A stretch of DNA of 50,327 nucleotides from Alphaproteobacteria bacterium (GTDB taxonomy: Bacteria > Pseudomonadota > Alphaproteobacteria > JACZXZ01): assembly GCA_035604475.1 (NCBI GenBank), contig DATNIJ010000048.1, positions 1-50,327 of the forward strand. The letters run 5' to 3'. Each line of letters opens with the position of its first letter. The first letter of the stretch is position 1. Shown piece by piece: positions 30,417 to 47,944 of this stretch. Position numbers and translations under genes: made by a program. The notes beneath the pieces are model-generated. The model was not told where the DNA came from. It did not search any database and saw nothing but the letters and a program-made list of their open reading frames with translations.

Positions 30417-32195
30417 TCAAAGCTTGAACGAAGTCTGCGCCAGCTGCTCGCTCGCGTAACGATAACCGATCTCGACAGCGCGATCGAAGGCCTTCCAGTC
30501 GAGGATGTCGACCGCCTCGAGCGGCGGGACGAGGAGGAGGTCGGCCTGCCGCCGCGCCAGCTCGTTCTGGATGTCCGAGCTGATGGTGCCGGCGCGCACG
30601 AGAACGGGAACGATCCAAGGCACGCCCCGGCGGCCCTTGAAGAGAAGCCGCCAGAGCGGCACGTTCTCCAGATCTTCCACGGCCGAGGTGAGCCCCCGCG
30701 TGGCGCCCACATTGACGCCGATCACCGGGCCGCGGTGCTGCGCGCGCATGAGATCGATGGGGAGATTGTCCATGACGCCGCCGTCGACCAGCACCTCGCC
30801 GCGCTCGATCACCGGCGGCAGCAGCCCCGGGATGGCGACGCTCGCGCGCAACGCCAGCCACAGCGGCCCGTCGCGATGCACGACCGAGCGCGCCGTCGTG
30901 AGATTGGAGGAAATGCAGAAATAAGGCCGCCACAGATCCTCGACCTGCACCTCGCCGAATTGCGCGCGCAGGAGGCGCGACACCTTACGCCCGCGGGTAA
31001 ATGCTATGAACGGCAGTGCCAAATCGGAAAGCGGATTGGTGTCCACGAAGGAGTGCCGCACCCGCGCACTCAGCTCCGCATCGGTCCATTCGAGGGCAAC
31101 GCCGGCCGCGATGATGGCGCCCATGCTGCTGCCGGCGACAAGATCGAATGCTATTCCGGCTTCGCGCAAGGCGCGGACGACGCCGATGTGGGCGAGTCCA
31201 CGCGCGCCGCCGCCGGAGAGCACGAGCCCCACGGCGCGGCCGAGCAGAAAGCGGGCCAAGCGCGCGGTGTCGCCTGCATTGCCCGGCCGTACGCGGCAAT
31301 GGAACTTTGCTGGGATACGGCTGAGCCAAGCGGAGGATGGTGCGGGCAAGGGACCGTCGGCGGACTCGAGCAGCACGAGATCGAGCGGCCGGTGCGCCAC
31401 CTCGGCGGGAGCGAGCTCGTGGAGCAGGACCGGCGGCAAGGGCTGATCCGGGCGGCAAACCAGGAGGACTCGGTCGGCTTGGCGCAGGCAAAGCCGCGTC
31501 CAGGGTGTAATTTCCGGCTCGGCGCAATAGACGCAGAAATCGCTCGCCAACTCGCGTGCTGTGAACCATTCGCTCTCGTGAAGGCCGTCGGCGGGACCCA
31601 GGATGCACACGCGTGGCGCGTGCGAGGCGAGGGCCGCGGCAAGGGCGCGGCCGAAGCTCTCGAGCGGCAGGTGGGGGGCAAGCGGCAGGAGAGCGAAATT
31701 CCGCGAGGCGCCGCCGAGCGCATCATGGCGCAGGCGCTGCGAGAGGCGCATGGCAAGATCGCGCGCGAGCGGCAACGCCACCCGCGGGTAGCGTTCGAGA
31801 ATACGCTCGAAATCTCGCCGCGTGATCTCCAGCACCTCGCTGTCACGCAGCGCCATCACCGTGGCCGAGCGGGTCTCGCCGGAGATGAGCGCCATCTCGC
31901 CGACGGTCTCGCCCACGCCGGCTTCCGCCACCACCACCGGCTCGCCGCTCGGCCCTTCGGCGAGGACGACGAGCCGCCCCGAGACCACGAGATAGAGCGC
32001 CTCGCCTTGCTCGCCCTGGCGGAAGAGAACGCTCCCTCCCGGCAGGCTGAACCAACTCATCTCCTCGAAAAATGCGGCGGCCACGGCGGCCGGCAGGCCG
32101 CGGAAAAGCGGCGCCCCGGCAAAGCAGTCGTGAACGCCTGCGATCCGCGAAGCGAAGAACGGTCCGCTTCTCTCTTCCTCCCCAGCGCCTGCCAT
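30417..32195 (-). CDS. Cyclic-nucleotide-binding domain / patatin-like phospholipase fusion protein (NTE/RssA-like)
   Basis: 592 aa. The N-terminal cNMP domain reads GEALYLVVSGRL...VGEMALISGETRSATVMALRDSEVL. The patatin core has LVLSGGGARGLAHIGV (oxyanion), AGSSMGA (GxSxG) and VDGGVMDNLP (catalytic Asp). Confidence 0.88.
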   Translation of the reverse strand: MAGAGEEERSGPFFASRIAGVHDCFAGAPLFRGLPAAVAAAFFEEMSWFSLPGGSVLFRQGEQGEALYLVVSGRLVVLAEGPSGEPVVVAEAGVGETVGEMALISGETRSATVMALRDSEVLEITRRDFERILERYPRVALPLARDLAMRLSQRLRHDALGGASRNFALLPLAPHLPLESFGRALAAALASHAPRVCILGPADGLHESEWFTARELASDFCVYCAEPEITPWTRLCLRQADRVLLVCRPDQPLPPVLLHELAPAEVAHRPLDLVLLESADGPLPAPSSAWLSRIPAKFHCRVRPGNAGDTARLARFLLGRAVGLVLSGGGARGLAHIGVVRALREAGIAFDLVAGSSMGAIIAAGVALEWTDAELSARVRHSFVDTNPLSDLALPFIAFTRGRKVSRLLRAQFGEVQVEDLWRPYFCISSNLTTARSVVHRDGPLWLALRASVAIPGLLPPVIERGEVLVDGGVMDNLPIDLMRAQHRGPVIGVNVGATRGLTSAVEDLENVPLWRLLFKGRRGVPWIVPVLVRAGTISSDIQNELARRQADLLLVPPLEAVDILDWKAFDRAVEIGYRYASEQLAQTSFKL

Positions 32196-35300: not shown

Positions 35301-36169
35301 AGCCCGCGGTTCGACTGGCGGATGTCCGGCTTGCCGGGCATCTCGAGCACCTGCAGCTTGCCCTCCGCATCGGGATTGCCGATGTCGGGGAACGCCGAGC
35401 CGATGCTGATGCCGCCGCGCTCGAAGACGCGGAAGATGTCGGCGGGCGGCACCACCTCCCAGGCCGGCAGCGGCAGGAGCTTCGGCAGGATGCCGTGGCT
35501 CTTCATGAGCGCGTCGGGATCCTTCGGGTTCTTGGCGATCGCCGCGGTGCCGTCCCGCGTATAGGCCTCGCCGAGAATGTAGTTCTTGTAGGGCAGGATG
35601 CCGTTGTTGTAGGAGGCCCCGCCCCAGAACATGGCGGCATTCGCCATCAGGCTGCGCTCGGCCGCCTCGATGATCTCGAGATGACAGGCGCCGCAGGCCT
35701 CGCGCGCGACGCGCAGGTCGCTCGGGTTGACGAAGCGGATGAACTCGGGCGCCTCGCGGTTGAGCAGCGTGTAGCTCTCCGCGGGCTTGCGGCTCTTGGG
35801 ATAGCCCCAGCTCTTGGGATAGCGCGGCAGCACGTGGGCGCGATTCATTGCCTCATCGTAGGCGGGCGTCCCGGACGCCCCCTGCCCCGGCCCCATCACT
35901 TGCGCATTGCCGCCGTGGCAGTCGGTGCAGCCGAGCGTCACTATGTCGCTCTCGTGCATGGTCAGGCTGTCGGTCGTGGTGTGGCAGGAGCGGCAGCCGG
36001 CACTCTTCGCCTTGGCCTCCTCCGGGAGCTGCGCCCGCGGCGCCGGCGGAGCCGGCGCGTAATGCACCTCGCGCGGGCTCTCCTCCTCGGGCATGGCCTC
36101 GAGGAAGCCGGCGCCCCCGAGGAGGAGCCAGGCCGAAGCCAGCAGCAGGACGGACGAGAGGCGGCGCAT
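32348..36169 (-). CDS. Secreted decahaem c-type cytochrome fused to a C-terminal LVIVD-repeat (beta-propeller-type) domain
   Basis: 1273 aa with signal peptide MRRLSSVLLLASAWLLLGGAGFLEA. Ten CxxCH motifs: CRSCH, CTDCH, CGACH, CGACH, CMICH, CVDCH, CVDCH, CYSCH, CSGCH, CTDCH. Six LVIVD-like repeats follow: FVYVAEGDDGMRAYDV, YAYITDAEEGLILTDV, FYIAADAGIVVLDM, YLFALDREGLKVIDV, YAYVADGRDGLAIIDV, FAYVADGKNGLKVIQL. Confidence 0.85.
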   Translation of the reverse strand: MRRLSSVLLLASAWLLLGGAGFLEAMPEEESPREVHYAPAPPAPRAQLPEEAKAKSAGCRSCHTTTDSLTMHESDIVTLGCTDCHGGNAQVMGPGQGASGTPAYDEAMNRAHVLPRYPKSWGYPKSRKPAESYTLLNREAPEFIRFVNPSDLRVAREACGACHLEIIEAAERSLMANAAMFWGGASYNNGILPYKNYILGEAYTRDGTAAIAKNPKDPDALMKSHGILPKLLPLPAWEVVPPADIFRVFERGGISIGSAFPDIGNPDAEGKLQVLEMPGKPDIRQSNRGLGTGLRIAVPVLNLAKTRLNDPYTWFLGTNDNPGDYRTSGCGACHVVYANDRDPRHSGPYAVYGHNGESASTDPTVPKHEPGHPIHHSFTNAIPTSQCMICHMHQPNMFLNTMLGYTMWDYEADAPFMWPAKQKYPSDAEARAILDRNPEEAAIRGKWGDPAFLDQVSELNPKLKMTQFADYHGHGWNFRAVFKQDRKGDLLDAKGQIVPREDPAWAKKAVHLSSIHVDKGMQCVDCHFSQDAHGNGYIYGEVMSAIEIRCVDCHGTIERYPTLMTSGPAAQPGGYDLALLRNQDGQRRFEWRGDKLIQHSAVDPKLEWEVSLVKDTVDPNNPRFNPRAARAKLMAKGTTFKWGPGVPEADLAHKSSEMACYSCHTSWTTSCSGCHLPIQANWRTERHHYEGGITRNFASYNPQVARDDMFQLGKHSTVEGNIIAPVRSSSALVLSSTNINRERIYIQQPPIAASGYSSQAFAPHFPHTERTTETKTCTDCHLSEANDNNAIMAQLLLLGTNFVNFIGYNSWVGEDGGIEAVRVTEWDEPQAVIGSYLHKYAYPDWYNAHLARGRELEEAHSHSGGRSGCIQERGEFVYVAEGDDGMRAYDVASVANKDVSERIITAPFSPLGQDMHIGSRNATCVALPTNQSIDPARNQGKLMREDNQEQPMHPIYNYAYITDAEEGLILTDVNPLSSREPRDRFLNRALTWNEGGVLKGARHITIGGDHFYIAADAGIVVLDMSDPLHPKLDAVVKLDGVRATALQFRYLFALDREGLKVIDVTHPEAPQQVAGAAVPLADARRFYVARTYAYVADGRDGLAIIDVERPEHPHLARIFNADGKMNDANDVVVGTTNASLFAYVADGKNGLKVIQLTSPDSQPNLYGFSPEPKPELIAWRKTEWPALSLSKGLERDRGVDESGNQIAVFGRLGSRPFTLPEMQELYLDVKGMPWYVTDEVRMQDLLRALPAAEPSASPARLSGRRQRAAAPPQ

Positions 36170-36179: not shown

Positions 36180-37970
36180 TCAGTAGGTCAAGACGATATC
36201 GGCGAGCACGGAATAGAGGTAGCGCTGCTTGTCCTGGGACACATAGAGGTCCTTGAAGCCCTGCTGCGGAATGAGGATGCCACCGGACAGCCGCAGCACG
36301 ACGTTCTGCGTGAAGAACGGCCGGTAGGTCAATGCCGCCGAGAGATCGAAACCGATGCGGTCCTGGATCTCGCCCTGCTGGCGCAGCACCTCGAGCACGG
36401 AGGTGTTCTGGAAGCGCAGGTAATTGGCGTTGGTCGAGAGCTTGAGCTCGGGGAGGATGTCGGCATCCGAGCCGACGCCGAAAAGCAGCAGGCCCGGGTT
36501 GATGAAGTTCGATTGCCCCTGGTCCTCCGAGGTGCGCAGCGAGGGCAGAATCGCGTTGCGGCCGGAGAGCACGACGCCGCCGCCGCCGATGAAGGGAATG
36601 GCCTGGCGGATCCAGTAGCTGGTATCGGCGCCGGCGAACTGCGGGTTCTCCATGATGGCGTCGAAGCCCGTCTCGGTCCTGCCGTAGGGATTGCGGTCGC
36701 CGCTGGCGTAGAGGCCCGAGAGCCGCACGCGCAGCCAGTCGAAGTCCACCGAGGGCTCGATCGCCGCGAACTCGGCGCGGATGTCGGCGGGCTTGCCGCT
36801 GAAGGTGTTGTGACTGTCGTAGCCGTTCGCGTAGTAGGCCGAGCTCATCAGGTTGAAGCGGCCGATATGGCCGTTCATGTTCCAGCCGGCGTAGGTCACG
36901 TCGTAATTATGCCCGCGCTCGTCGCCGATGGGGGCCGGGCGGACGAGGAAGTCGTTGTCGTCGTAGAAGCGCTCGCCGCGCTCGCGGTTGCGGTTGTAAA
37001 CGACGGTGATCTGCTGGGTCAGGCCGGGCCAGGGCAGGTCCTGGCGGTAGAGGTTGGTGACGAGGACCCAATCCTTGCGCCGCGCCTGGGTCACGTCGTT
37101 GAGCCCGCTGTCGGTGTCCTTCTCCAGGCGCTGGAACATGGCAAGGTTGTACTGCCAGAGATTGTTGTCGCGGTTGCCGAAAAGCCGCGCGCCGAGCTGG
37201 TCGTCCTGGAAGAGGAAGCCGCGGAAATCGGTGGAGAAGGGCTGAATGCCGACGCGCAGCGAATCGAAATCGTAGCGCTCCGAGACGTCGCGCAGGTGGT
37301 AGTCGATGAACGCTTCCTGCAAGCCGACGAAGGTCTTCTGACGCGTGTCGCCCTTGCGCGGGTCGGCATTGACGATGCCGACCTCGTCGACCGAAAGGTA
37401 ATTGACGTTGAAGACCGGCGTCACCCGGAACTCGAACTCGGGCGGCTTGAAGGCGGTGTCGCCCTTGGTGAAGGAGAAGCTCGAAAGCAGATTCTCGTTG
37501 ATGAAGGCTTGGCCGATGCGGCCGTAGGTGTCGATCTCGCGCGAGTTCTTGGTCGACTGCACGCCGACCGGCGTCGGCACCGTGCGCGGCTCGAACACCG
37601 TATCGTTGACGAAGGACGTGCTGAAGAACCAATCGTTGCCGAAGAGCGGCCGGTCGCCCTTGAAGGTGTTCTGGCTGTAAGGATTCCACCAGTGCTCGTT
37701 AACCCCGATCTCCTCGATGAGGCGCCAGCGGTCCGGCACGGGGATGAACTCGCGAGGATAATCGCGCGTGGGCGGCGCCACCGCAGGGGGGCCGGTCTCG
37801 GGCGCCGGCGTCTCCTCGACCGGCGGCGGCTGGCCGGGCAGCCGCCGCCCGTCCTGGGCGATGTCGAGGTCCTCGGCGAGGGAAGGCTCGATTTGATATC
37901 CGGCCGCCCGCGCCGGGTGCGACAGCGAAAGCGCGAGCCCGACTGCCAGTAGCATGGACCACGGGCGCAC
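36180..37970 (-). CDS. Putative outer-membrane beta-barrel protein (porin-like)
   Basis: 596 aa with signal peptide MRPWSMLLAVGLALSLSHPARA. A Pro-rich N-terminal segment is followed by a long region of alternating hydrophobic/aromatic dipeptide pattern. The C-terminus ...ADIVLTY carries an OMP-type terminal aromatic. It is 10 nt from the downstream cytochrome gene and 9 nt from the upstream gene. GTG start at 37970, or ATG at 37955. Confidence 0.65.
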   Translation of the reverse strand: MRPWSMLLAVGLALSLSHPARAAGYQIEPSLAEDLDIAQDGRRLPGQPPPVEETPAPETGPPAVAPPTRDYPREFIPVPDRWRLIEEIGVNEHWWNPYSQNTFKGDRPLFGNDWFFSTSFVNDTVFEPRTVPTPVGVQSTKNSREIDTYGRIGQAFINENLLSSFSFTKGDTAFKPPEFEFRVTPVFNVNYLSVDEVGIVNADPRKGDTRQKTFVGLQEAFIDYHLRDVSERYDFDSLRVGIQPFSTDFRGFLFQDDQLGARLFGNRDNNLWQYNLAMFQRLEKDTDSGLNDVTQARRKDWVLVTNLYRQDLPWPGLTQQITVVYNRNRERGERFYDDNDFLVRPAPIGDERGHNYDVTYAGWNMNGHIGRFNLMSSAYYANGYDSHNTFSGKPADIRAEFAAIEPSVDFDWLRVRLSGLYASGDRNPYGRTETGFDAIMENPQFAGADTSYWIRQAIPFIGGGGVVLSGRNAILPSLRTSEDQGQSNFINPGLLLFGVGSDADILPELKLSTNANYLRFQNTSVLEVLRQQGEIQDRIGFDLSAALTYRPFFTQNVVLRLSGGILIPQQGFKDLYVSQDKQRYLYSVLADIVLTY

Positions 37971-37979: not shown

Positions 37980-39884
37980 CTACTTCCCGGAGCAGGCGTT
38001 TTGGTTCTGCTGTCCGAGGAAGGGGTCCACCGGACAGTTGACGTAGCGCAGTGCCACACCCATCGGTGACAGGTTGTCGGCACGGATACCGACGGGGGCG
38101 TTGCCGATGCCCGTGTTGAGCACGCCGCCCGCGTTGTTGAGGCCGAGGAAGCTCACCAGATCGTCCTGGTCGACGCCGTCGCCCGAGGTGCCGATGCCGC
38201 CCACGAGCACGGAACCGCGGTAGATCGGCACGCTGCCGGGGAAAATCTGGATGCCGTTGGGCAGCCGCGCCACCCCGGTGCAGGCCACTACCGTATCGGG
38301 GTTGGTACCGAAGATGAAGCCCACGTGCTGCACGATGTTGGCGGCGACGAGATCGAGCTGGAGCCCGTCCGTGAATATGCTCCACTGGTTGATCGGATTG
38401 CTGAAGGGTCCGTTGGGCGTGCCGTCGATGCCGTCGGGGTAGTATGGGCGCGAGAGGTTGCCGTTGGCCCGATCGGTGAAGGCGTAGGCGCCGGTGAGCA
38501 TGGCCTGCCCGACGAAGGAACGCGCGGCACCCACGTAGCCGCCCATCCCGGCCGCGGCGAGATCGTTGCCGGCATAGGCGCCGGAGAAGAAGGCGGCGGT
38601 GCGCGCCTTCTGCAGCGCCACGTCGATGCCGAACACCGGCGCGTCGGGCGCGCGCACCGCGCCGAGGATGCCGCCGTTGGTGTCGACTACGAAACTCGAT
38701 ACCTGCGCGGCGCTGTTGAGCGGCTGGCGGATCTGCGAGCGCGCCTGGAGGCCGACCGCAAGGGCCTGGGCGAGGATCTGCTGCACCTCAGCTGCGGTGA
38801 GCGCAAGCGCCCCGTCGGTGCCGGGGCGGGGCGCGAAGCGGTTGACGTTGCTGGCATCGACTAGAACGTAGGCCTGCGCATTGCCGAAGAGGCCGGAGCT
38901 GTCCGGCGCAATGCCCGAGGCCGGCGTGCCGTAGACCGTGCCGTTGAGGGGGACAAGTCCCGCGGTATAGTAGCCGTTCACACTGACGAGCGCGCCGGCG
39001 GTGCCGTTGATCGCGGCGAAGGAAGGTGCGGCGCCCGGATTGGCGGCGAGTGCGGTGGTGTCGACGTCGGTGTAGGGCAGCAGGAGCCCGTTGATGGTGA
39101 TCTTGTTGGCCCGGATGCCGGCCGGGGCATCGAAGCCGACGGTGCCGGCGAGCGCTATCAGCTCGTCGGGATCGCTTTCGGTGACGAAGACGGTGAGGTC
39201 GTCGCTGTAGACACCGCGCGAGGTCACGCCGATGCCGCCTACGAGCACGCCGCCCGAATAGAGCGGTATGCCACCCGGATCCGCCGAGAGCCCGAGCGGC
39301 GAGCGCTGCGGCCCGATCATCCCGCTCGTGGGAAAGCGCGAAGAAAGGTCGGAGCAGGGCAGCTGGCTGAACTGCACGCCGAAGAGCGGGCCGGAGGGCT
39401 GGTCCTTCGTCCCGGGCGCGAAGTGCTCCTGCACGATGTAATTGGCCGTGCGCGTGGTGAAGGCGTTGCCGTTGGAGGAGAGGTAGGCGCCGGTGATCGC
39501 CTTGGCGATCGCGGCGGCGGTGTCCGGCACCACCGCATTCTCCAAGCCGCCCACCACGCCCCGGCCCGAGGTGATCGTCACGTCGAGCGGCGCGCCGTTC
39601 ATGCGGAAGACGCCGAGCACATTGCCGACCCGGTCCACCACCGCAATCGTCGCGGGTTGATGGCGCGCCGTGGCCTCGCCCACGGCCTGGGCGATGATTT
39701 GGGCTACGGCGTCGCTGGTGAGTTGCTGGGCCTCAGCCCGCACCACCCCGAACGATAAGACAGAGAGCGCTGCCGCCGCACATGCCGCGGCCGCCCGGAG
39801 AGCATGGCCTCGGCGGCGGCGGCCGACCGCTTCCCTCGCTGCCCCTTCCGCGCCACGACGAGGTCGCGATTCCGGCGCCATCAT
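37980..39884 (-). CDS. Secreted protein with two GlcG/HbpS-like (DUF336, haem-binding/degrading family) domains
   Basis: 634 aa. GGGGGGAG Shine-Dalgarno precedes ATGATG. The Arg-rich leader reads RRRRGHALRAAAACAAAALSVLSFGVVRAEA. Domain 1: AQIIAQAVGEATARHQPATIAVVDRVGNVLGVFRMNGAPL...AIAKAITGAYL. Domain 2: VQQILAQALAVGLQAR...SSFVVDTNGGILGAVRAPDAPVFGIDVALQKARTAAFF. Confidence 0.65.
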   Translation of the reverse strand: MMAPESRPRRGAEGAAREAVGRRRRGHALRAAAACAAAALSVLSFGVVRAEAQQLTSDAVAQIIAQAVGEATARHQPATIAVVDRVGNVLGVFRMNGAPLDVTITSGRGVVGGLENAVVPDTAAAIAKAITGAYLSSNGNAFTTRTANYIVQEHFAPGTKDQPSGPLFGVQFSQLPCSDLSSRFPTSGMIGPQRSPLGLSADPGGIPLYSGGVLVGGIGVTSRGVYSDDLTVFVTESDPDELIALAGTVGFDAPAGIRANKITINGLLLPYTDVDTTALAANPGAAPSFAAINGTAGALVSVNGYYTAGLVPLNGTVYGTPASGIAPDSSGLFGNAQAYVLVDASNVNRFAPRPGTDGALALTAAEVQQILAQALAVGLQARSQIRQPLNSAAQVSSFVVDTNGGILGAVRAPDAPVFGIDVALQKARTAAFFSGAYAGNDLAAAGMGGYVGAARSFVGQAMLTGAYAFTDRANGNLSRPYYPDGIDGTPNGPFSNPINQWSIFTDGLQLDLVAANIVQHVGFIFGTNPDTVVACTGVARLPNGIQIFPGSVPIYRGSVLVGGIGTSGDGVDQDDLVSFLGLNNAGGVLNTGIGNAPVGIRADNLSPMGVALRYVNCPVDPFLGQQNQNACSGK

Positions 39885-40003: not shown

Positions 40004-41686
40004 TCAGGGCCGTTTTGGGGCTGCGGCCTCGGCCGGTCGCATGAGCTCGAGATTGGCGCGGTGAAAGATGTGACAAAGCAGGCAAGGCGACGGCACCGCC
40101 GCCGTCGCCGCCGGGCCGCCGTGGCATTCGCGGCATTTGGCGATCTTGGGCATCATCACGATCTCGCTGGTCGTCGAGCGCTCAGCGCCCATGTGGCATT
40201 CCTGGCAGCGCAAGGTGCCATGCTTGCTGTGATCGAACTCCGCCTTGGGCATCCAACGCCGCGTGAGCAGCACGGGTGCGATCTCCCAGTTCTTGCTCGC
40301 ACTCGCCTCCGGCGGGACCACGGTGTGGCAGGTGCCGCACATGCCGCCGCCGAAGACGATCTTGCGCAGCGTGATCTTGGTCTGCTCGTCGGCCCACTCG
40401 CGCGCCTCCACGCGGTCCGCCTCGGCGAGCGGCTCGCCCGGCAGCCCGCCGAGGGTGGCAGGTATCACGCCGCGGCTCAGCGACCGCGCGGCATAGAAGT
40501 CGGCGACGATGCGGATGACCTCGGCCGGCTCGCCGTGCGGCAGCTGGCGCCTGGGCGCGGTCTCGTCGAACTGCAGGCGATGGCATCGCTGGCACTCGGT
40601 CTCCATGCGGGTCGGCCGGATGAATTTGCCGCCCGGCTCGAGCTTGTGGCAGTCGGTGCAGGTGAGCACCACTGTCCCCTTCTCGGGGTCGCGCACGCCC
40701 TTGGGATCGAGGTGCTTTTGGTGATTAAACTTGAGCCCGGAGTGCTCCACGAGCGGCGTGCTCGCGGCGAGCGACAGGCGCTCGCGCAGCTGCTTTGCCG
40801 GGTCGACCACGACCGTGGGACGGAACTCGGGGTGCGTGCTGGTGAAGTCGGAGACATCCTCGAGCGTGGTCTCCTTGTCCTTACGCTTGAGATCGGCGTG
40901 GCAGTCGGTGCAGAAGGCCTGGTCGTGCCGCACGATCGGCTCCTCGCCGCGGTGCTCCTGGTGGCAGACCCCGCAGCGCACGAGCTGCAGCTCCGCCAAG
41001 CGCAGCTGTTGCGGGGGGACGTGGTGATGGACCGTCTTATGGCAGGCGACGCAGGCCGCATCGGCGACCTTGGCAAAGGCCTCCCTGTGGCAGGCCTGGC
41101 AATTGCCGACGAGATTCTTGTGCGGCGCCGAGATCGTCCCGCTCGACACCATGCGGTCGGGCGGCAGCGCGGCGGCGGTAAGCATGCTGCGAACGTTCTT
41201 CGCGTAGAACGCCGCCACCGGCAGGGCCAGCGTGACGGCGATCACGCCAAGAAAGAACACCCAGGACCAGCGGCGCTTGCTCGGCAAGAGGGCCGCAAGC
41301 TGGAGGCCGGTGATCGCCGCTCCCTGGCTCGAGCCCTCCTCAAGCGGGTTGACGAGCTCGACCTCGACGAGGAGGTCGTGATCGCCCTCGGCCTCGTTGA
41401 GGCCGATGCGATAGGGACCGATGCCGATCTCGTCGCCCGGCTGGACGACGGCGCGGGCGACCGGGATGCCGTTGACCGTCATCAGGTTCCCGCCGCTCGC
41501 GGCGACGACGAAGGCGCCGTCGAGCAGCCCCAGCCGCGCGTGACCGAAGGCGACGCGGATGTCGGGAAGATAGACCTCGTTCGCGGTGCCGCGCCCGAAG
41601 CGCAGGATCGCCGTCTCGACGGGCTGGTCGGAATGGGAGATCGCGCCGCCGGCGCGCCGGGTTATGAATCTCACGAGCCAACGCAC
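40004..41686 (-). CDS. FHA domain - transmembrane helix - decahaem c-type cytochrome fusion
   Basis: 560 aa with a GTG start. The N-terminal FHA-like domain reads ILRFGRGTANEVYLPDIRVAFGHARL...NLMTVNGIPV...GDEIGIGPYRI. One TM segment follows (WSWVFFLGVIAVTLALPVAAFYA). Ten CxxCH motifs: CQACH, CVACH, CGVCH, CTDCH, CTDCH, CQRCH, CGTCH, CQECH, CRECH, CLLCH. Confidence 0.85.
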   Translation of the reverse strand: MRWLVRFITRRAGGAISHSDQPVETAILRFGRGTANEVYLPDIRVAFGHARLGLLDGAFVVAASGGNLMTVNGIPVARAVVQPGDEIGIGPYRIGLNEAEGDHDLLVEVELVNPLEEGSSQGAAITGLQLAALLPSKRRWSWVFFLGVIAVTLALPVAAFYAKNVRSMLTAAALPPDRMVSSGTISAPHKNLVGNCQACHREAFAKVADAACVACHKTVHHHVPPQQLRLAELQLVRCGVCHQEHRGEEPIVRHDQAFCTDCHADLKRKDKETTLEDVSDFTSTHPEFRPTVVVDPAKQLRERLSLAASTPLVEHSGLKFNHQKHLDPKGVRDPEKGTVVLTCTDCHKLEPGGKFIRPTRMETECQRCHRLQFDETAPRRQLPHGEPAEVIRIVADFYAARSLSRGVIPATLGGLPGEPLAEADRVEAREWADEQTKITLRKIVFGGGMCGTCHTVVPPEASASKNWEIAPVLLTRRWMPKAEFDHSKHGTLRCQECHMGAERSTTSEIVMMPKIAKCRECHGGPAATAAVPSPCLLCHIFHRANLELMRPAEAAAPKRP

Positions 41687-41707
41687 GGCGGGCGACCTTC
41701 GCGGATC

Positions 41708-42544
41708 TCAGAAATAAAAGAAGACCAAGACGATATGGGCGGTGAGGGCGGCGAGCAGCGCGAAGGCGAGCGGCACATGGACGTAGAGCCAGATCTCCAT
41801 CAGCGCCTTGTAGCGGAGGTCGAGCCGGACCTGCGCAACCAGCGCCTGCTTGCGCTGGAGCTCGCGGCGCAGGCGCATGACCGGCACGTCGAGCTTGGCG
41901 GGCACGGTGGCCGCGAGCTCTTCGATCCGGGCCAGCGCCCGCGTCGTGCCGCAGTTGCGATCGACGCCGCTCAACTGCCGGCGCAGCGAGCCGCCGATGC
42001 GCGTCTCCTGGTGGCTGATCCGCACCGCGGCGGCAAAATCGTCCGGCAGGTTGAGGCACGCCGCGCGCGATTCGCGGTCGATGTCGGCGAGCTTGATGAG
42101 CATGCTGCGCAAGGTCTCGCCGCGGCGGTTGTCGGTCATGAGCCGGGGATAGCGCGCATAGACGTAGATGCCGAAGAGGCCGCTCCCGATCACCATCATC
42201 ATGAGGGCATAGGCCAGCGTGTGGATGTTCCAATGGAAGCGGAAGCCGGTGTGCAGGGTGGCAATGACGGCGAGCGCCAGGCCGAAGTAGACGTGGCCGG
42301 AAAGCCAGGCCTCGAGCCGCCACTCGCCGGGGCCGTAGCGGCGCTTGCGCACGCCGAACCACATCAGCCAGACGACGAGAAGTGCTGCCACCGTGCCGAG
42401 CGTGTAGCCGAGCCAGGTGCTGCCGCTCGGCACGCCGCGCGGCGAGTCGACGGCGTACCAGACGAGTGCCGCCCCGGTCATCGCCGTGGCGACTTTGGGA
42501 TAGAGTAGGTTGCGGTAGACGAGGAAGGATTCGTGGAGGCTCAT
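41708..42544 (-). CDS. Integral membrane protein, about 5 TM helices with conserved-looking intramembrane histidines (possible b-haem carrier)
   Basis: The start is taken at MSLHESFLVY, where the ATG overlaps the upstream stop (ATGA at 42541-42544). Histidines sit in predicted helices (GHVYFGLALAVIATLH, NIHTLAYALMMMVIG, WLYVHVPLAFALLAALTAHIV). A soluble helical insert of about 100 aa lies between TM4 and TM5. Confidence 0.7.
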   Translation of the reverse strand: MSLHESFLVYRNLLYPKVATAMTGAALVWYAVDSPRGVPSGSTWLGYTLGTVAALLVVWLMWFGVRKRRYGPGEWRLEAWLSGHVYFGLALAVIATLHTGFRFHWNIHTLAYALMMMVIGSGLFGIYVYARYPRLMTDNRRGETLRSMLIKLADIDRESRAACLNLPDDFAAAVRISHQETRIGGSLRRQLSGVDRNCGTTRALARIEELAATVPAKLDVPVMRLRRELQRKQALVAQVRLDLRYKALMEIWLYVHVPLAFALLAALTAHIVLVFFYF

Positions 42545-44946
42545 TGCACCCCCCGGCCGAGCATCATGGTCTCCTCGGGGCCGCGCCGCACGGCGGCCCC
42601 CGTGGGACAGGCGCGCACGCAGGCGGGCCCGCCCTTGATGTCGCGGCACATGTCGCACTTGACGGCAAGCTTTGGCGCCTTGCTCTTGCCGTCGTGGCTC
42701 TTATGCGGGCTCTTGTCCTCGCCGGGGCCCGGGCCGCGGCCCAAGAGGAGCCACTGCAGGAGCCCCGGCTTCGGCGGCGGCAGTGCTGCGATCTGGATCA
42801 CGCCGTAGGGGCAGTTCACCTGGCAATTGCCGCAGCCGATGCAGCTGTCGTCGATCCACACTTCGCCGCCGGGCGCCCTGTGGATGGCATCGGGCGGGCA
42901 GTCGGTCATGCAGTGCGGATGCTCGCAGTGGCGGCACGAGGTGGGGATATGGAGCGAGCCGAAGGTCGGACCCGCCTCGCGGTCGAGGCGCGAGATGCCG
43001 TCATGGGTCTCGGCGCAGGCCTTTTCGCAATTGTCGCAGCGTACGCAGAGCGCCTCGTCGATGAGCAGCATGTCGGTCGCCTCACCGCCGCCCTGGGCGA
43101 GGAAGAATTCGAAGATGTTGCTGTGATCGATCTCCGCCTCGTGGCGCAGGTCATTGAGGAGATAGCGCCGCGCCTGCTCGTCGAACCTGGCTTTCACCTC
43201 CGGATTGTGCTCGAGCACGCGCCGCACCGCGCCGCCGTCGAGCTTGATCGCCTCGCTCTTGATCGCGGCGGTCACGGTGGCCGAGCGCGGCGCGCGGCGC
43301 AAGAGCGCCATCTCGCCCACGATCTTCCCGGCCGGAACGTAGCTCAGCACGATATCGCGGCCGCCGATCTTGCGCGACACTTTGACCGAGCCGGTGCGGA
43401 TGACGTAGACGCTGTCGTCGCCGACGGCACCCTCCTCGATGAGGCTTTCGCCGACGTTGAAGGAGACGATCTCCGCCGTGGAGGCCAAGTCGTGCAGATC
43501 CTCGTCGGAGAGGCCCTGCTCCAGATAGGCGCGCAGCTGGCGGACAAGCATGGTCTCGTCCATTAGGCGTTTGGTCGCGGGGATCGTGTTGATCAGCTTG
43601 ATGGCGGCAAAGCGCGGCACCTCGATGAGCGTGCACTCGGTCGCGGCACGGATCGTGGCGGAGCGCCGGCGCCCCGAGATGAGCCCGATCTCGCCGAAGA
43701 AGTCGCCTTTCCCGAGCGCAACAGTCCGGCTCGGGTCGTTGACATCGATCTCGATCGCGACCGTGCCGCCGAGGATCGCGAAGAGCGTGTCGCCGTAGTC
43801 GTTGCGCAGGAACACGGGCTCGCCCGGCGCTTTGACCAGTACCTCGCTGCCGAGGAGGAACTCGCGCAGCTGGAGGCGTGTGAGCCCGGAGAAGAGGCGC
43901 ACGGTTGCCACGATGCGGTCGAGCACCTCATTCACGCCGGGCCGGCCGGGGATGATCGCGAACTTCTCCTCCAGCAAGGGCTCGTCCGCGGGCAGGACGC
44001 TCTCGCCGCGGATGTACTCGATGACCTCGTATCCCTGGTTCATGCAATGCTTGATCAGCGGGTAGCCGGCCAGCGCGCCGATGATGTAGAGGCCCGGCAC
44101 GTTCGATTCGTAGGTGTTGCTGACCTCTGGGAACGACTTCGCGTCGCTGCTGCGGAACTTGACGCCGCAGGATTCGACGAACTTGCGCGGCGGATTGGCG
44201 CCGAGCCGCGCGATGATGCGGTCGCACGCGATCGTACCCTCCCCGGTGGGCCCCTTGAGCGCGATGCGGCCGGCCTCGATGCGCACGGGCTCGGCGTTGT
44301 ACTCGCACTTCAGGGTGCCGGATTCGATCGCCTGGCGGATCTGGTTGAGGTTGCCGGTCTTGGCCCGCGAGAACTCGCCGCGGCGGTTGACGATGACGAC
44401 GCGGTTCTGCCGCGCGAGCGCGATCGCGTTCTCGATCGCGGCGTCGCCCGCGCCGATGACCACGATGGATTCGTCCTTGTATTCGCCGGGATCGTCGAGC
44501 TGATACTGCACAAGCGACAGCTCCGCCCCCGGCACGGTCAACTTGTTGAGGTTGCCCTGGAGCCCGATCGCCATGACGACGTTCGCGGCGGTAATCGCGG
44601 TACCGTCCGCAAGCTTGACCTCGAAGGCGCCGCGCGAGCCGGCGATGCGCACGACCTCGCTGTTGAAGCGGACGTTGACGCCCTTCGCCTCGAGTCCAGC
44701 GCGCCAAGTGTCGAGGATGTCCTCGCGCGAGCCGGCAGCGAAGGCGAGCGCGCTCCTGAGCGGCAGGCGCGCCGGCGTCGCCATGACGTACTTGCCCTTC
44801 TGGTACTTCTGGATAGTGTCGGCGAAATGCGGAGCGCGCTCGAGGAGAAGATGCGAGACCTTGCATTCGGCGGCGCGTCCGGCGGCGCTGACGCCGGCGG
44901 GACCCGAGCCCACGATGACGACTTCGTAGCTCTCGCTCATTGCCAT
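42541..44946 (-). CDS. Fusion: TrxR-like FAD/NAD(P)H oxidoreductase (no CxxC) + two cyclic-nucleotide-binding domains + four-cluster [4Fe-4S] ferredoxin module
   Basis: About 800 aa. FAD fold VVIVGSGPAGVSAAGRAA and NAD(P)H fold IVVIGAGDAAIENAIALA. The cNMP domains read FFGEIGLISGRRRSATIRA and IVGEMALLRRAPRSATVTA. The Fe-S motifs are CVRCDNCEKAC, CRHCEHPHCMTDCP, CIGCGNCQVNCP and CDMCRDIKGGPACVRACP. I saw no redox-active CxxC in the flavoprotein part. Start at 44946 (MAMSESY) or 44940. Confidence 0.85.
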   Translation of the reverse strand: MAMSESYEVVIVGSGPAGVSAAGRAAECKVSHLLLERAPHFADTIQKYQKGKYVMATPARLPLRSALAFAAGSREDILDTWRAGLEAKGVNVRFNSEVVRIAGSRGAFEVKLADGTAITAANVVMAIGLQGNLNKLTVPGAELSLVQYQLDDPGEYKDESIVVIGAGDAAIENAIALARQNRVVIVNRRGEFSRAKTGNLNQIRQAIESGTLKCEYNAEPVRIEAGRIALKGPTGEGTIACDRIIARLGANPPRKFVESCGVKFRSSDAKSFPEVSNTYESNVPGLYIIGALAGYPLIKHCMNQGYEVIEYIRGESVLPADEPLLEEKFAIIPGRPGVNEVLDRIVATVRLFSGLTRLQLREFLLGSEVLVKAPGEPVFLRNDYGDTLFAILGGTVAIEIDVNDPSRTVALGKGDFFGEIGLISGRRRSATIRAATECTLIEVPRFAAIKLINTIPATKRLMDETMLVRQLRAYLEQGLSDEDLHDLASTAEIVSFNVGESLIEEGAVGDDSVYVIRTGSVKVSRKIGGRDIVLSYVPAGKIVGEMALLRRAPRSATVTAAIKSEAIKLDGGAVRRVLEHNPEVKARFDEQARRYLLNDLRHEAEIDHSNIFEFFLAQGGGEATDMLLIDEALCVRCDNCEKACAETHDGISRLDREAGPTFGSLHIPTSCRHCEHPHCMTDCPPDAIHRAPGGEVWIDDSCIGCGNCQVNCPYGVIQIAALPPPKPGLLQWLLLGRGPGPGEDKSPHKSHDGKSKAPKLAVKCDMCRDIKGGPACVRACPTGAAVRRGPEETMMLGRGVQ

Positions 44947-45128: not shown

Positions 45129-45899
45129 CTATTTGAACAGCTTTTCGCCCGACGCCGTGGCGCCGTCCACCACGCGCTGGTTCGACAATTCTTCGATCAG
45201 CGCCTTGGCTTGCACGGTGCAGCCGACCGTTGCCATCCAGCTCAGCACTTCGGCATCCGTCACGACTCTTGCGGGCATGATGCGCAGGGTCAGCTCGCGC
45301 GTCATTTCCGGCGGGGCGAAGGTGACGACATAGCCGGCGCCGTCCGCGGCCTTGACGCGCTTCGGCCAGGGCATGACGATCTGGTCCGCGGGCCACTCGA
45401 AGCTGCTGTGCTCCTTGGTGCCCTTGTGGGTGATGGTGATCGAGACGGTCTGCTTTGGCGCGGGCCGCCACAGCTCGAGCTCGGTCGCGGGCTTGATGCA
45501 CTTCGTCCCCGAGGCGGCGACGTTGATCGACCAGACCGTGGGCGTTTTGGCGGCGGCGCCCAAGCCCCGCGTCAAGCCGAGGGTGGTCAAGCCGCTCGAG
45601 CCCTCGGTCGTGACGATGGCGGCCATCCGCGTGAGCAGGCTGGGGCCGTCCGCCCGATCTTCCCCGCCCGGGATGCCGTTGTAGGGCCCCCTCACGGTAA
45701 CCACCTGGCCGCTCTCGTCCATCAGCACGACGTAGTTGTCGGCCTTGACAGCGAACTTTTGGCTGCCGTCCACGGTGTCGCCCTTCTGCAGCCCGGTGTC
45801 GGGCGAGCTCTCGAGCACGAGGAGCTTCGCCGCACTCGCCGGCACGGCCGAGAGCAGGAGTGCGGCGAGCACAAGCGCAAATCGTGACCAGCGCATCAT
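45129..45899 (-). CDS. Secreted hypothetical protein translationally coupled to the CHASE2 cyclase
   Basis: The start is taken at MMRWSRFALVLAALLLSAVPASA (signal peptide), giving 256 aa. The start overlaps the cyclase stop (ATGATG/TGA at 45896-45899). No motif was recognised with confidence; the N-terminal half is possibly a FecR-like beta-sandwich. Confidence 0.7.
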   Translation of the reverse strand: MMRWSRFALVLAALLLSAVPASAAKLLVLESSPDTGLQKGDTVDGSQKFAVKADNYVVLMDESGQVVTVRGPYNGIPGGEDRADGPSLLTRMAAIVTTEGSSGLTTLGLTRGLGAAAKTPTVWSINVAASGTKCIKPATELELWRPAPKQTVSITITHKGTKEHSSFEWPADQIVMPWPKRVKAADGAGYVVTFAPPEMTRELTLRIMPARVVTDAEVLSWMATVGCTVQAKALIEELSNQRVVDGATASGEKLFK

Positions 45900-47944
45900 T
45901 TGTCCTCCAACATGATTGTGATGCCAGTCTCCCCCCGCCGCAAGCGTTCCAGATGGAACGCCGCGAGCGGGTCCTCGGGCTGGCGTCGGTGGAGCGCCTC
46001 GAAGGCGCCCAAGGCTTGAGGGGAGCCTTGCCGCAGCAGCTCGAAGGCCGCGCAATAGTCGGCAAGGCCCGGAGACTCGTCCGCGGCAGGCGCGAAGACC
46101 GCGACGCTGTGCGCTTTGCCGCGTAGCACCACGTCGCCGACCGGCCGCAAGGGAATGTCGCCCGCCTCGGCCACCACCGCCTCGCTCGCGGCGATATCGG
46201 TATTGAAGTACTTGTTCGCACCCTCGAGCCGCGCCACGGTATTCACCGCGTCGCCGTGCGCCATGTATTCGAGCCGGGCGGCGCCGCCGAAATTGCCGAC
46301 CGTGGCGAGGCCGCGGTGGACGCCTATTCGAGTGCGCCCGAAATCGAGCCCTTCCGCCGCCGCCTTTCGGCGCTCTTCCTTGGCGAAGCGGTTCATTGCG
46401 AGTGCCGAGCGGAGCGCGTGCGCCGCCTGCTCGGGGTCATCGAGGGGCGCTCCCCAGAAGGCGAGGACCGCATCGCCGATGAAGCCGGCGACGGTGCCCT
46501 TGTGATCATAGATGATGCTCGTCATGCCGCTGAGATAGCGATTGAGCGCCGGCACCAGGGCCTTGGGATCCGCACTCTCGCACAGCGTGGTGAAGCCGGA
46601 GATGTCGGTATAGACGAAGCTCATCATGCGCCGCTCGCCGCCGAGCTTCATGTCCTCGGGGTGGAAGAGCAGGTGATCGACGACCTCCGAGGGCACGTAG
46701 CGGGTCAGGACCGAACGGATGAAGCGCCGCTCCGCGGCGTGGAGCTGGCGCGCGTGGGCAATGCCGATCGTCATGGCGATGAGGAAACCGGCGGCCGGCG
46801 TCACGAGCGGGAAGATCGGCCCCGGCGTCACCACCGGCGCCGTGGCGCCGCCATAGTGAAAGATCGCCCCGGCCGCGGCCAAGAGCAGCATGATCGTGGC
46901 GAACCCGACGGTCACGCGCAGCGACCACGCCATCTCCCGGCGGCCGATGAGGAAGCCGAAGGCGGCCAGGCCGGCAATGAGCAAATCCGCGGCCCACGAG
47001 GGCACCGCCTCGACCTCGCGCCCGTCGAGAAGCTGGGCCAGGCCTTGCGCCTGAAGATAGACCCCCGGCGTGGCAGATTGGCCAGTCAGCGGATCGCTGG
47101 CAAAGGGCGTGCGGTGGAGATCGACATTGAGAAGATTGGCGCCGATGAGCACGACGCGATGGGCAAGCGTGCTGCTTTGCACCCGCCAGATCTGCGGCAT
47201 CTCGGGAAAGAGCAGGTGCGCCGGAAAGCGAATGAAGGGCTGCTGGTCCTTGAAGGGATGGCCGTAATAGGCGAGCGGCAGCGTGAGGCCGGGGGGCGCC
47301 GCGCCCCCGGCGCTCTTGCTGAGGAGGAGATCGAAGGTCTCCCGGACCGTGCCCGCCGGCACGCGCAGGACGAGCTGCCGCACCACCCCGTCGCGATCCT
47401 CGCGCATCACGCTCAAGCCGGGCACGACGAGCGGATTGTCGATGCGCTTGATGAAGTTCTCGAGATACGTCTCCTGCCAGCGCTCGATGGCGCCCGGCGC
47501 ATTGACCGCATCGATCCAGCCCAGCACCACGGGCACGCGCACGTGGTGCAGTGCGGCCAGGAGGGCTGCATCCTTCTCGGGCTCGCTCGGCTCGTCGAAG
47601 AGCACGTCGATACCGATCGCCGCCGGTTCGGCGGAGGCCACGGTGTCGACGAGCTTGGCGAGAAGGCCGCGGTCCACCGGCGAGCGGCGGCCGATCTTGG
47701 CCGCCGTCGCCTCGTTGATCTCGACCACCGCCACCTTGGGATGCGGGGGTGCCGACGGCGCCAAGAGCGCCAGACGTAGATCGCCGAGCCAGGTCTCGAG
47801 CAGGCTGAAGGGTGGCACCCGCGCGGCGAAGAGGAGTGCTGCGAGCAGCGTCGCGAGACTTGCCGAGGAGCGCAGCCAGATCTTCCATGGGCGCGGCGAC
47901 TCTTCCAAAAGCGTAGTGCCACGCCCATCTCGGGACCGCATCAA
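45896..47944 (-). CDS. CHASE2 sensor domain - TM - class III nucleotidyl cyclase
   Basis: 682 aa. N-terminal TM, then a periplasmic CHASE2-like region (VAVVEINEAT...IGIDVLFDEP...VVLG), three TM helices, then the cyclase domain (MSFVYTDISGFTTL, GFIGDAVLAFWGAP, RIGVHRGLATVGNFG, GDAVNTVARLE). Confidence 0.88.
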   Translation of the reverse strand: MMRSRDGRGTTLLEESPRPWKIWLRSSASLATLLAALLFAARVPPFSLLETWLGDLRLALLAPSAPPHPKVAVVEINEATAAKIGRRSPVDRGLLAKLVDTVASAEPAAIGIDVLFDEPSEPEKDAALLAALHHVRVPVVLGWIDAVNAPGAIERWQETYLENFIKRIDNPLVVPGLSVMREDRDGVVRQLVLRVPAGTVRETFDLLLSKSAGGAAPPGLTLPLAYYGHPFKDQQPFIRFPAHLLFPEMPQIWRVQSSTLAHRVVLIGANLLNVDLHRTPFASDPLTGQSATPGVYLQAQGLAQLLDGREVEAVPSWAADLLIAGLAAFGFLIGRREMAWSLRVTVGFATIMLLLAAAGAIFHYGGATAPVVTPGPIFPLVTPAAGFLIAMTIGIAHARQLHAAERRFIRSVLTRYVPSEVVDHLLFHPEDMKLGGERRMMSFVYTDISGFTTLCESADPKALVPALNRYLSGMTSIIYDHKGTVAGFIGDAVLAFWGAPLDDPEQAAHALRSALAMNRFAKEERRKAAAEGLDFGRTRIGVHRGLATVGNFGGAARLEYMAHGDAVNTVARLEGANKYFNTDIAASEAVVAEAGDIPLRPVGDVVLRGKAHSVAVFAPAADESPGLADYCAAFELLRQGSPQALGAFEALHRRQPEDPLAAFHLERLRRGETGITIMLEDK

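Follow-up and report, generated by a model that had tools for sequence, protein, structure and literature searches.

The 50,327-bp contig DATNIJ010000048.1 of an alphaproteobacterial assembly (GCA_035604475.1; this whole stretch is hereafter called the window) encodes on its minus strand an 801-aa protein in which a flavoprotein, two cyclic nucleotide-binding (CNB) domains, and a polyferredoxin with four cysteine motifs are joined in a single chain. The gene for this fusion protein is translationally coupled to one for a membrane protein that is read as a dihaem cytochrome b, and a gene for a decahaem cytochrome c follows. The gene set is predicted from sequence to specify a chain gated by cyclic nucleoside monophosphates (cNMPs), in which electrons would pass from NAD(P)H via FAD, four [4Fe-4S] clusters, and two b haems into a conduit of multihaem c-type cytochromes leading towards the periplasm and the outer membrane. 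We estimate the probability of this whole chain at roughly 55%; confidence is much higher for the architecture of the fusion and its partnership with the cytochrome b and the decahaem cytochrome, and lower for the outward direction of the flow and for allosteric gating. The features concerned are as follows, in window positions, with residue numbers of the fusion protein for its domains.

42541..44946, minus strand: whole fusion open reading frame (ORF), 801 aa; flavoprotein, CNB-A, CNB-B, and 4x[4Fe-4S] polyferredoxin (translation, Pfam, and alignment).
43942..44928, minus strand: FAD/NAD(P)H module with two Rossmann folds, thioredoxin reductase (TrxR)/YpdA fold, residues ~7-335 (Pfam, PDB sequence matches, Foldseek, and AlphaFold2).
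43537..43935, minus strand: CNB domain A, residues ~338-470, cassette FGEIGLISGRRRSAT (PF00027 and alignment with the tandem domains of PKG and the PKA regulatory subunits, PKA-R; E419 and R428 in 82-83 of 83 sequences).
43132..43536, minus strand: CNB domain B, residues ~471-605, cassette VGEMALLRRAPRSAT (PF00027, best stretch 494-581; E545 in 83/83 and R554 in 82/83 sequences).
42577..43071, minus strand: HycB/HydN/CooF-type polyferredoxin, residues ~626-790, four Cys motifs (Fer4_11, Fer4_7, and HycB alignment).
41708..42544, minus strand: 278-aa membrane protein, interpreted as a dihaem cytochrome b (Pfam Ni_hydr_CYTB, transmembrane (TM) scan, and invariant His residues).
40004..41686, minus strand: protein with a cytoplasmic FHA domain, one TM helix, and a periplasmic decahaem cytochrome c (Pfam FHA, Cytochrome_C7, and c3; 10 CxxCH motifs).

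The protein translated from 42541-44946 begins with MAMSESYEVVIVG. An alternative in-frame ATG is located upstream at position 44985 (+13 aa); the start at 44946 was preferred because homologues are 795-806 aa in length and share the consensus N-terminus 'MAExYxVAIVGSGP'. In the Pfam search, residues 7-305 matched Pyr_redox_3 (E 2e-32) and Pyr_redox_2 (E 5e-25), two stretches matched cNMP_binding (PF00027; 112.4 bits versus a gathering cutoff of 27.5), and residues 628-784 matched the 4Fe-4S dicluster models Fer4_11 (36.5 versus 26.2) and Fer4_7. Conservation of the flavin-module motifs and of the cassettes was counted in 83 aligned sequences of the family. An inspection of the letters and translated ORFs made before this analysis (the sequence-only reading) had described two dinucleotide folds, two cNMP signatures, four Cys clusters in one ORF, and ATGA coupling to a His-rich membrane protein, and all of these were borne out. 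The motifs GSGPAG (13-18) and GAGDAA (165-170) show little or no variation, the two phosphate-binding cassettes have the canonical form and are conserved, the 16 Cys residues are each 99-100% conserved, and the junction with the membrane protein gene reads ...GTG CAA TGA GCC TCC AC. An AlphaFold2 model of the fusion, built on 46 sequences, had a mean predicted local distance difference test (pLDDT) value of 76 and a predicted template-modelling score (pTM) of 0.69. A Foldseek search with the whole model returned single-domain matches only, and no solved structure with the full architecture was found among them.

The flavin module was modelled with a pLDDT of ~90 across its length, and the region past residue 295 runs into the N-terminal helices of CNB-A. 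YpdA/Bdr structures (7a76 and 7a7b, E ~1e-18) gave the best matches in the PDB sequence search, followed by TrxR and TrxR-type ferredoxin:NAD(P)+ reductases (FNRs). The same order was obtained with Foldseek, in which Bdr 7a7b came first (target-normalised TM-score 0.82, E 1e-25), ahead of FNRs, i.e. Bacillus subtilis YumC 3lzw, C. tepidum 3ab1, R. palustris 5ygq, and B. cereus FNR1/2 (E 1e-20 to 1e-22, TM-score 0.5-0.75), and of TrxRs. A comparison with YumC-type FNRs had been suggested by the sequence-only reading; the fold without a disulfide stood up to it, whereas the closest relative proved to be YpdA/Bdr, with YumC-type FNRs in second place. Over residues 5-295, the module agrees with YpdA/Bdr in the layout of its two Rossmann folds for FAD and NADPH and in the lack of the TrxR CxxC, but at only 21-23% identity, and it differs from these enzymes in lacking the Cys of GGGPCG and in carrying attached CNB and Fe-S domains. 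With TrxR it shares the FAD GxGxxG and NADPH GxGxxA motifs but not the CxxC. With the TrxR-type FNRs it shares a TrxR fold without a redox disulfide and, as predicted, the transfer of electrons from NAD(P)H to an iron-sulfur protein, although their Fe-S partner is a separate small ferredoxin and here it is an attached four-cluster domain located beyond two CNB domains.

The absence of a CxxC from the reductase part, also noted earlier, holds for the whole of residues 1-620; a redox-active CxxC was looked for on proper alignment, and none appeared. In a phmmer alignment with the TrxR of L. lactis (5mh4), the 'CAVCDG' of TrxR stands opposite 'QLDDPG' of the fusion, and the sequence VQYQLDDP is invariant in the family. 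The position of the YpdA/Bdr active-site Cys is occupied by Ala in the window protein; across the family, this residue (17) is mostly Gly (39 sequences) or Ala (34), less often Ser (8), and rarely Cys (2). No invariant Cys was found in residues 1-620 among the aligned family sequences. These results bear on the possibility that the module is a true disulfide reductase for low-molecular-weight thiols or thioredoxin, with the Fe-S part serving as a redox sensor. Such a function would agree with the identity of the closest sequence and fold matches, Bdr/YpdA and TrxR, and with the labels 'thioredoxin reductase' or 'YpdA family' that JGI pipelines attach to relatives. It is highly improbable, given the missing CxxC, the Ala or Gly at the equivalent of YpdA Cys14, the lack of any invariant Cys, and NCBIfam scores far under the cutoffs (TIGR04018, YpdA, 133.5 versus 339.9 bits; TIGR01292, TrxR, 59.9 versus 343 bits). 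We rejected it as contradicted by the alignments. Because every redox cysteine has been lost, a role of the dehydrogenase or ferredoxin-reductase type is indicated, and on these alignments the module is best described as a thiol-less NAD(P)H dehydrogenase of the TrxR/YpdA fold that is placed outside the curated YumC, TrxR, and YpdA families. The second of its Rossmann motifs, GAGDAAIENA...VNRRGEFSRAK, is similar to GxGxxA/HRRxxxR, the NADPH-type motif of TrxR, with N187, R188, R194, and K196 conserved (R188 and R194 each in 78/83). From this GxGxxA...NRxxEFxR motif, NADPH is probably preferred over NADH.

The two CNB domains follow each other directly. Cassette A has the pattern F417-G-E419-x-[GS]-L422-I-S-G425-R-R-R428-[ST]-A-T, and cassette B the pattern G544-E545-M-A-L-x5-R554-[ST]-A-T. 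In CNB domains, the cassette Glu makes the ribose contact and the cassette Arg the phosphate contact, and [ST] after the Arg is found in cAMP and cGMP binders alike. Loss of either residue was looked for, and both domains keep both. In the PDB search, the best matches over residues 346-600 were PKG and the PKA regulatory subunits, which aligned with the tandem, and MloK1 and SthK, which aligned with single domains. The fusion shares canonical cassettes with all of these proteins, and two consecutive CNB domains with PKA-R and PKG, but its output would be the junction of two redox modules rather than a kinase, a channel, or a DNA-binding domain. In the AlphaFold2 model, the long C-terminal helix of CNB-B (582-604) runs into the first Cys motif of the Fe-S domain. 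Binding of cyclic nucleotides by both domains, and an activity switched by the nucleotide, are predicted from these features.

CNB domains on a flavoenzyme of the TrxR-type fold have a precedent, as a cNMP-TrxR fusion (the ATII-TrxR/Cupriavidus type) has been expressed and reported to be a TrxR with a true CxxC (PMC6544261). That protein likewise joins a CNB domain to a TrxR-fold flavoprotein, but it has one N-terminal CNB domain, the CxxC, TrxR activity, and, as far as that report describes it, no Fe-S domain (PMC6544261). A literature search for proteins combining cNMP-binding, TrxR, and 4Fe-4S domains, or cNMP-binding and polyferredoxin domains, returned nothing.

In the C-terminal domain, the Cys residues form four groups, i.e. 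C634/637/640/644, C671/674/679/683, C702/705/708/712, and C764/767/776/780, with the spacings CxxCxxCxxxC, CxxCxxxxCxxxCP, CxxCxxCxxxCP, and CxxC(x8)CxxxCP, respectively. Residues 627-784 align with residues 5-163 of HycB from formate hydrogenlyase (7z0s_B, E 5e-18), and an end-to-end alignment of the domain was also obtained with HycB3/4 of HDCR. The order and spacing of the four motifs are those of HycB, HydN, CooF, and FdnH, and the proposed partnership with a bis-His dihaem membrane subunit would parallel that of FdnH with FdnI. Unlike these subunits, the domain in the fusion is cytoplasmic and joined to its own dehydrogenase and sensor domains, and its membrane partner bears no more than a marginal resemblance to the known families of cytochrome b. 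An insert, LLxWLLxGxGPGPGED, separates Cys groups III and IV (residues ~727-744; window region 42700-42790), in which W732, G736, G738, P741, and G742 are invariant. The insert was modelled with low confidence; as a guess, it might contact the membrane or the cytochrome b.

The TM scan of the membrane protein indicated ~5 TM helices, with His84 and His98 on one helix and His256 and His270 on the last, each pair being 13-spaced. These four residues and H108 are invariant in 64 homologues. Two His pairs on TM helices are the classic arrangement for stacked bis-His b haems, as in cytochrome b, FdnI, and NOX. The protein is read on this basis as a dihaem cytochrome b, with one putative haem near each membrane face. 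A basic soluble loop, probably helical, of 115-148 aa is present between TM4 and TM5 in all 64 homologues (115 aa in the window protein, region of residues 129-247); it is placed in the cytoplasm because its Lys/Arg-rich character follows the positive-inside rule, and it could offer the Fe-S domain a surface on which to dock. The decahaem protein encoded next contains a single TM helix (142-160), and all ten of its CxxCH motifs are conserved. In its FHA domain (residues 1-100), the Gly-Arg and Asn-Gly motifs are conserved and the canonical phospho-Thr-binding Ser is absent.

The arrangement of these genes is strongly conserved. The cytochrome b gene is located directly downstream of the fusion gene at 63 of the 72 loci with enough sequence, and the decahaem gene comes next after it at 54 of 61. 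This strict synteny, together with the domain content and the 16 invariant Cys residues, lends good support to the earlier proposal that the fusion is an entry or exit point between NAD(P)H and Fe-S clusters working with the membrane protein. The sequence-only reading had remarked that allosteric second-messenger control of an electron-transfer flavoprotein would be unusual; in sequence space, the architecture itself is not. A scan with one genome per species confirmed full-length homologues for at least 591 species, from the Alpha-, Beta-, and Gammaproteobacteria; the best 80, drawn from these three classes, share 53-60% identity with the window protein. An exhaustive HMMER search yielded 844 clusters at 50% identity (E <1e-30), ~50 of them full-length, with identities down to 33%.

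In the window, the fusion and membrane protein genes belong to a longer cluster on the minus strand, whose transcription order is cyclase, 255-aa protein, fusion, membrane protein, decahaem cytochrome, HbpS-like protein, barrel, LVIVD decahaem protein, and patatin-like lipase. The additional genes of this region are as follows.

45896..47944, minus strand: class III nucleotide cyclase with a CHASE2 sensor (Pfam CHASE2 and Guanylate_cyc).
45129..45899, minus strand: 255-aa secreted protein, start-stop coupled to the cyclase gene (signal-peptide-like N-terminus, no Pfam match).
37980..39884, minus strand: secreted protein with three HbpS/GlcG-like domains of the haem-binding type (Pfam HbpS-like, 3 stretches).
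36180..37970, minus strand: outer-membrane beta-barrel, AlgE/OprD-like, 596 aa, ~18 strands, putative porin (AlphaFold2 and Foldseek).
32348..36169, minus strand: 1273-aa secreted decahaem cytochrome c with C-terminal LVIVD repeats of the beta-propeller type (Pfam LVIVD and Cytochrom_c3_2; ten CxxCH motifs).
30417..32195, minus strand: cNMP-binding patatin-like lipase with CNB, NTE P-loop-like, and patatin phospholipase domains (Pfam).
28842..30389, plus strand: c554-like tetrahaem cytochrome c, membrane-anchored or secreted, divergently transcribed (Pfam Cytochrome_C554; 4 CxxCH motifs).
26041..28464, minus strand: Ser/Thr kinase with DUF4384, part of the window cluster.

Among the 30 loci with at least 9 kb of sequence on both sides, genes near the fusion gene included the cytochrome b in 28, the decahaem cytochrome in 30, an HbpS-like protein in 18, the barrel in 19, the LVIVD decahaem protein in 19, and a c554-like protein in 10; a cyclase gene was present in none. 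At four loci (L039, L044, L050, and L053), the c554-like gene is on the same strand and ends 20-59 bp before the fusion gene. Two alphaproteobacterial loci, from marine and other sources (L013 and L028), carry a bare four-gene module consisting of the fusion, cytochrome b, decahaem, and tetrahaem genes.

Relatives with a different input end were also identified. Proteins of ~445-520 aa that lack the flavin module and consist of two cNMP domains and the polyferredoxin occur in many clusters, e.g. in Nitrospinota. At the three loci examined for these variants (L083, L084, and L085), a cytochrome b-like gene (~265-278 aa) follows in all, a multihaem c gene (~275 aa) comes next in two, and an adjacent flavoprotein gene was found in none. 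The possibility that these short relatives are assembly fragments was rejected, as they are intact genes that lie on long contigs and have cytochrome b neighbours of their own. In a relative from Planctomycetota, the flavoprotein is replaced by a NuoG-like Fe-S module ([2Fe-2S] Fer2_4 plus Nqo3-like), with the cNMP domains and then the polyferredoxin after it. The flavin-less and NuoG-like variants (P0405, P0391, P0420, and P0472 among them) indicate that the conserved unit consists of the cNMP domain(s), the polyferredoxin, and the cytochrome b, usually with a multihaem c, and that the input module is exchangeable. With either kind of input redox module, flavoprotein or NuoG-like, the cNMP tandem sits between that module and the polyferredoxin. 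These variants are hard to reconcile with a tandem that is an accident of gene fusion, and would be expected if it controls electron entry or the docking of the Fe-S wire.

The same data help to judge whether the fusion and the cytochrome b could form an alternative NAD(P)H:quinone oxidoreductase, with the multihaem cytochromes belonging to a separate, quinol-linked branch. The membrane protein has a weak match to Ni_hydr_CYTB, whose members react with quinones, and pairs of a polyferredoxin and a cytochrome b normally end at a quinone site. Set against this are the TM-anchored decahaem gene, co-transcribed right after the cytochrome b gene at most loci, and the multihaem c gene accompanying flavin-less variants at two of the three loci examined, which suggests a direct hand-over from b to c haems; moreover, a quinone-site motif was not identifiable in the membrane protein. 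A quinone-reducing complex is accordingly rated as distinctly improbable.

An operon similar to part of the cluster has been named. A preprint on Alphaproteobacteria of oxygen-deficient zones defined the operon 'ptdABCDEFG', comprising PtdA (a pentahaem protein with a beta-sandwich), PtdB (a porin), PtdC (an FAD/NAD(P) oxidoreductase), PtdD (a periplasmic tetrahaem protein), PtdE (a cNMP/Fe-S protein), PtdF (labelled 'transmembrane ferric reductase-like'), and PtdG (a periplasmic decahaem protein), whose function, according to its authors, 'remains completely unknown', and for which a porin-cytochrome complex was suggested (bioRxiv 10.1101/2023.11.21.568154). Compared by description, the window has all four genes of the D-E-F-G order, i.e. 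tetrahaem, cNMP/Fe-S, TM b-type, and decahaem; its c554-like tetrahaem protein corresponds to PtdD in position and description, a porin is present in both clusters, and the taxa in Table S7 of the preprint match (Alpha- and Gammaproteobacteria, Nitrospinota, and Planctomycetota). The clusters differ in that the preprint counts two clusters, not four, in PtdE and does not mention a flavin module, while the FAD/NAD(P) oxidoreductase is a separate protein in ptd (PtdC) and no separate FAD protein is encoded in the window cluster. The outer modules also differ, consisting of the PtdA pentahaem/beta-sandwich protein and PtdB in ptd, and of the triple HbpS-like protein, the AlgE-like barrel, and the decahaem LVIVD protein in the window. 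None of the PtdE accessions in Table S7 matched the cluster members of the fusion family that were looked up. The large family to which the fusion belongs has received a name on one occasion and is biochemically uncharacterised.

If these elements are assembled, the fusion would be the cytoplasmic subunit through which electrons enter a redox chain that spans the membrane. FAD in the TrxR/YpdA-fold module would be reduced by NAD(P)H, with NADPH as the probable donor, and electrons would move from there to the C-terminal wire of four [4Fe-4S] clusters in the same chain. The wire would hand them to the coupled membrane protein, whose two b haems, one near each face, would pass them to the TM-anchored periplasmic decahaem cytochrome c; in the lineage of the window, they could travel onward to the tetrahaem c554-like protein, the decahaem LVIVD protein, and the AlgE-like barrel. 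The cNMP tandem, lying between the input module and cluster I, would serve as a nucleotide-operated hinge that sets the distance from FAD to the cluster or from the cluster to the haem. Binding of the nucleotide would shift the flavin module with respect to cluster I, or the Fe-S domain with respect to the cytochrome b, and so switch the electron flow on or off, with the neighbouring CHASE2 cyclase supplying the nucleotide on a periplasmic cue.

The cyclase is likely to be a local cNMP source. In its catalytic domain (45896-46699), the Asp residues that bind metal are retained, and so are the Asn and Arg of the transition state. The residues that specify the purine are Gly (in 'GTVAGFIGD') and Met (in 'YMAHGDAVN'); elsewhere, this pair is Lys/Asp-Thr in adenylate cyclases and Glu/Gly in the guanylate cyclase Cya2.

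Several points weigh against the proposed chain. The evidence is wholly computational, and the direction of flow is not readable from sequence. The Ni_hydr_CYTB (PF01292) score of the membrane protein, 31.5 bits, is just above the cutoff of 30.1, and NCBIfam gave no match. The Fe-S domain is poorly modelled (pLDDT <60), so that the proposed geometry between FAD and the clusters and any nucleotide-dependent movement are predictions. The carriers are mostly from lineages of aerobic heterotrophs, for which dissimilatory metal reduction is not an obvious role. As for the nucleotide, the product of the cyclase is uncertain because its specificity pair is non-canonical, and the cyclase is not a conserved neighbour, as the counts for the 30 long loci indicate. 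A full-length CHASE2 cyclase gene beside the fusion gene was found elsewhere only at locus L002, and four other loci gave partial matches (24-41% coverage, 29-36% identity). The cyclase was consequently rejected as a part of the conserved system and is regarded as lineage-specific.

With regard to direction, the same wire might operate in reverse, i.e. outer or periplasmic cytochromes would oxidise a low-potential donor, electrons would move inward to reduce NAD(P)+, and the cNMP would open the uptake. TrxR-type FNRs are reversible, and the combination of a polyferredoxin and a dihaem cytochrome b works in both directions in formate dehydrogenase-N and hydrogenase-2. To judge from their Pfam names, c554-like and other multihaem proteins also take part in oxidative pathways, and the authors of the ptd preprint noted the operon in nitrite oxidisers and left the direction open (bioRxiv 10.1101/2023.11.21.568154). 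An input of energy would be required, however, for typical donors in the periplasm to reduce NAD(P)+ (-320 mV), and the cluster has no coupling ion-pump subunit; furthermore, NAD(P)H would be plentiful in the aerobic heterotroph lineages that make up most of the carriers. Inward flow is for these reasons considered improbable, and outward flow is retained in the proposed chain.

With regard to gating, the wire may work as proposed without the CNB domains being an allosteric gate; they could instead be a spacer or dimerisation scaffold, bind another ligand, or control assembly or localisation. In the CRP family, the CNB fold is well known to accommodate ligands other than nucleotides, e.g. in CooA (haem), NtcA (2-oxoglutarate), and CprK. 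The absence of a cyclase gene from most neighbourhoods and the non-canonical specificity residues of the local enzyme point in the same direction, as does the presence of a single CNB domain in some relatives (P0223 and P0263). The ribose Glu, the phosphate Arg, and the flanking Gly, Ala, and Thr are nevertheless kept in 82-83 of the 83 sequences, which is hard to explain without the phosphate of a cyclic nucleotide as ligand, and the nearest solved relatives, PKG, PKA-R, MloK1, and SthK, are true cNMP binders. We consider a non-gating tandem rather unlikely, and the nucleotide-operated hinge is kept as the predicted function.

By analogy only, the proposed chain resembles the eukaryotic NADPH oxidase/ferric reductase (NOX/FRE) systems and the bacterial SpNOX, in which cytoplasmic NAD(P)H, FAD, two bis-His b haems, an outside acceptor, and control by signalling are likewise combined. 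The flavin domains are non-homologous (FNR-fold in NOX), and a four-cluster wire and multihaem c-type cytochromes are added here. The cluster could tentatively be described as a trans-envelope electron exporter gated by a second messenger and fuelled by NAD(P)H, i.e. a bacterial functional counterpart of the NOX/ferric-reductase systems, a description that we regard as possible and still doubtful. If it is correct, extracellular or periplasmic reduction (of Fe(III), of O2 to superoxide, or of other acceptors) would be a signalling-controlled, non-respiratory process in many aerobic Proteobacteria, and a cyclic nucleotide would exert direct, allosteric control over an intramolecular electron-transfer step, a control to which the FHA domain and a Ser/Thr kinase may add a second layer.

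We know of no demonstrated case of direct cNMP control of an electron-transfer protein. Should the gating prove true, it would to our knowledge be the first biochemical case of a cyclic nucleotide switching an intramolecular path from a flavin to iron-sulfur clusters, and it would provide a function and a control logic for the ptd-like porin-cytochrome clusters, which occur widely among Proteobacteria of sea and soil, Nitrospinota, and Planctomycetota and are transcribed in oxygen-deficient zones. The fusion offers a tractable entry point, since a donor site, a sensor, and a wire are combined in one soluble polypeptide. Cultured carriers include Nisaea acidiphila, Oceanibacterium hippocampi, Zavarzinia, Glacieibacterium frigidum, and Pseudomarimonas arenosa.

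The 255-aa protein was found elsewhere only at L002, in a metagenomic relative (94-95% identical). Two copied pieces of the fusion locus are located in the interval (48021-48430) that separates the cyclase gene from the divergent patatin gene: positions 48152-48315 are a 92% copy of a segment from within the fusion gene (44265-44428; residues ~173-228), and positions 48310-48430 are a 90% copy of its 5' upstream region (compare 44974-45092). The segment 48021-48315 is an insertion relative to L002. In both genomes, an element of ~55 bp (TGTG.CCG.AC...GCCCA.GCGC.CGGCAATCCGCA.TGCG) is present upstream of both the cyclase and the fusion genes and may be a common regulatory site. A scan of 39800-48200 for promoter and terminator consensus sequences detected no promoter-like site, and terminator-like sites were no commoner than in shuffled sequences.

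For the 596-aa barrel protein, Pfam, NCBIfam, and PDB sequence searches gave no match. Some sources name it 'Alginate export domain' or 'OM beta-barrel', and its AlphaFold2 model is all-beta, with a signal helix, a disordered N-terminal stretch of ~100 residues, and ~18 long strands; AlgE 3rbh was the best Foldseek match (E 4e-17), and OprD-family porins were also obtained. The 1273-aa LVIVD protein is the most conserved in the cluster, with 59-70% identity where the fusion has 53-60%. No solved relative of it was found in the PDB sequence search, and a literature search on LVIVD and multiheme returned one unrelated Tenderiales paper only. A set of genes for type II secretion lies directly upstream of the cluster in Nisaea acidiphila (L001), which would fit surface export of the decahaem LVIVD cytochrome.

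The cassette region of the patatin-like lipase shares 80% nucleotide identity over 54 bp with that of the fusion, and the lipase gene is not conserved beside the fusion gene elsewhere. The kinase type encoded in the window recurs, with a PP2C phosphatase, just upstream of the c554-like and fusion genes at L044 (5724-8524). Together with the FHA domain, the recurrent Ser/Thr kinase and PP2C neighbours hint at a second regulatory input.

Farther away, a tRNA gene (21439-21511) was the sole Rfam match in the window. Within the region 21439-25000, the stretch that follows this gene has a lower G+C content, 0.57-0.61 versus ~0.67, and contains a 344-aa orphan ORF without a Pfam match (22033-23067) and an antitoxin/PIN-toxin-like pair (23410-23664 and 23652-24077), which was judged by eye with no family-library search made. 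This stretch is probably a small integrated island.

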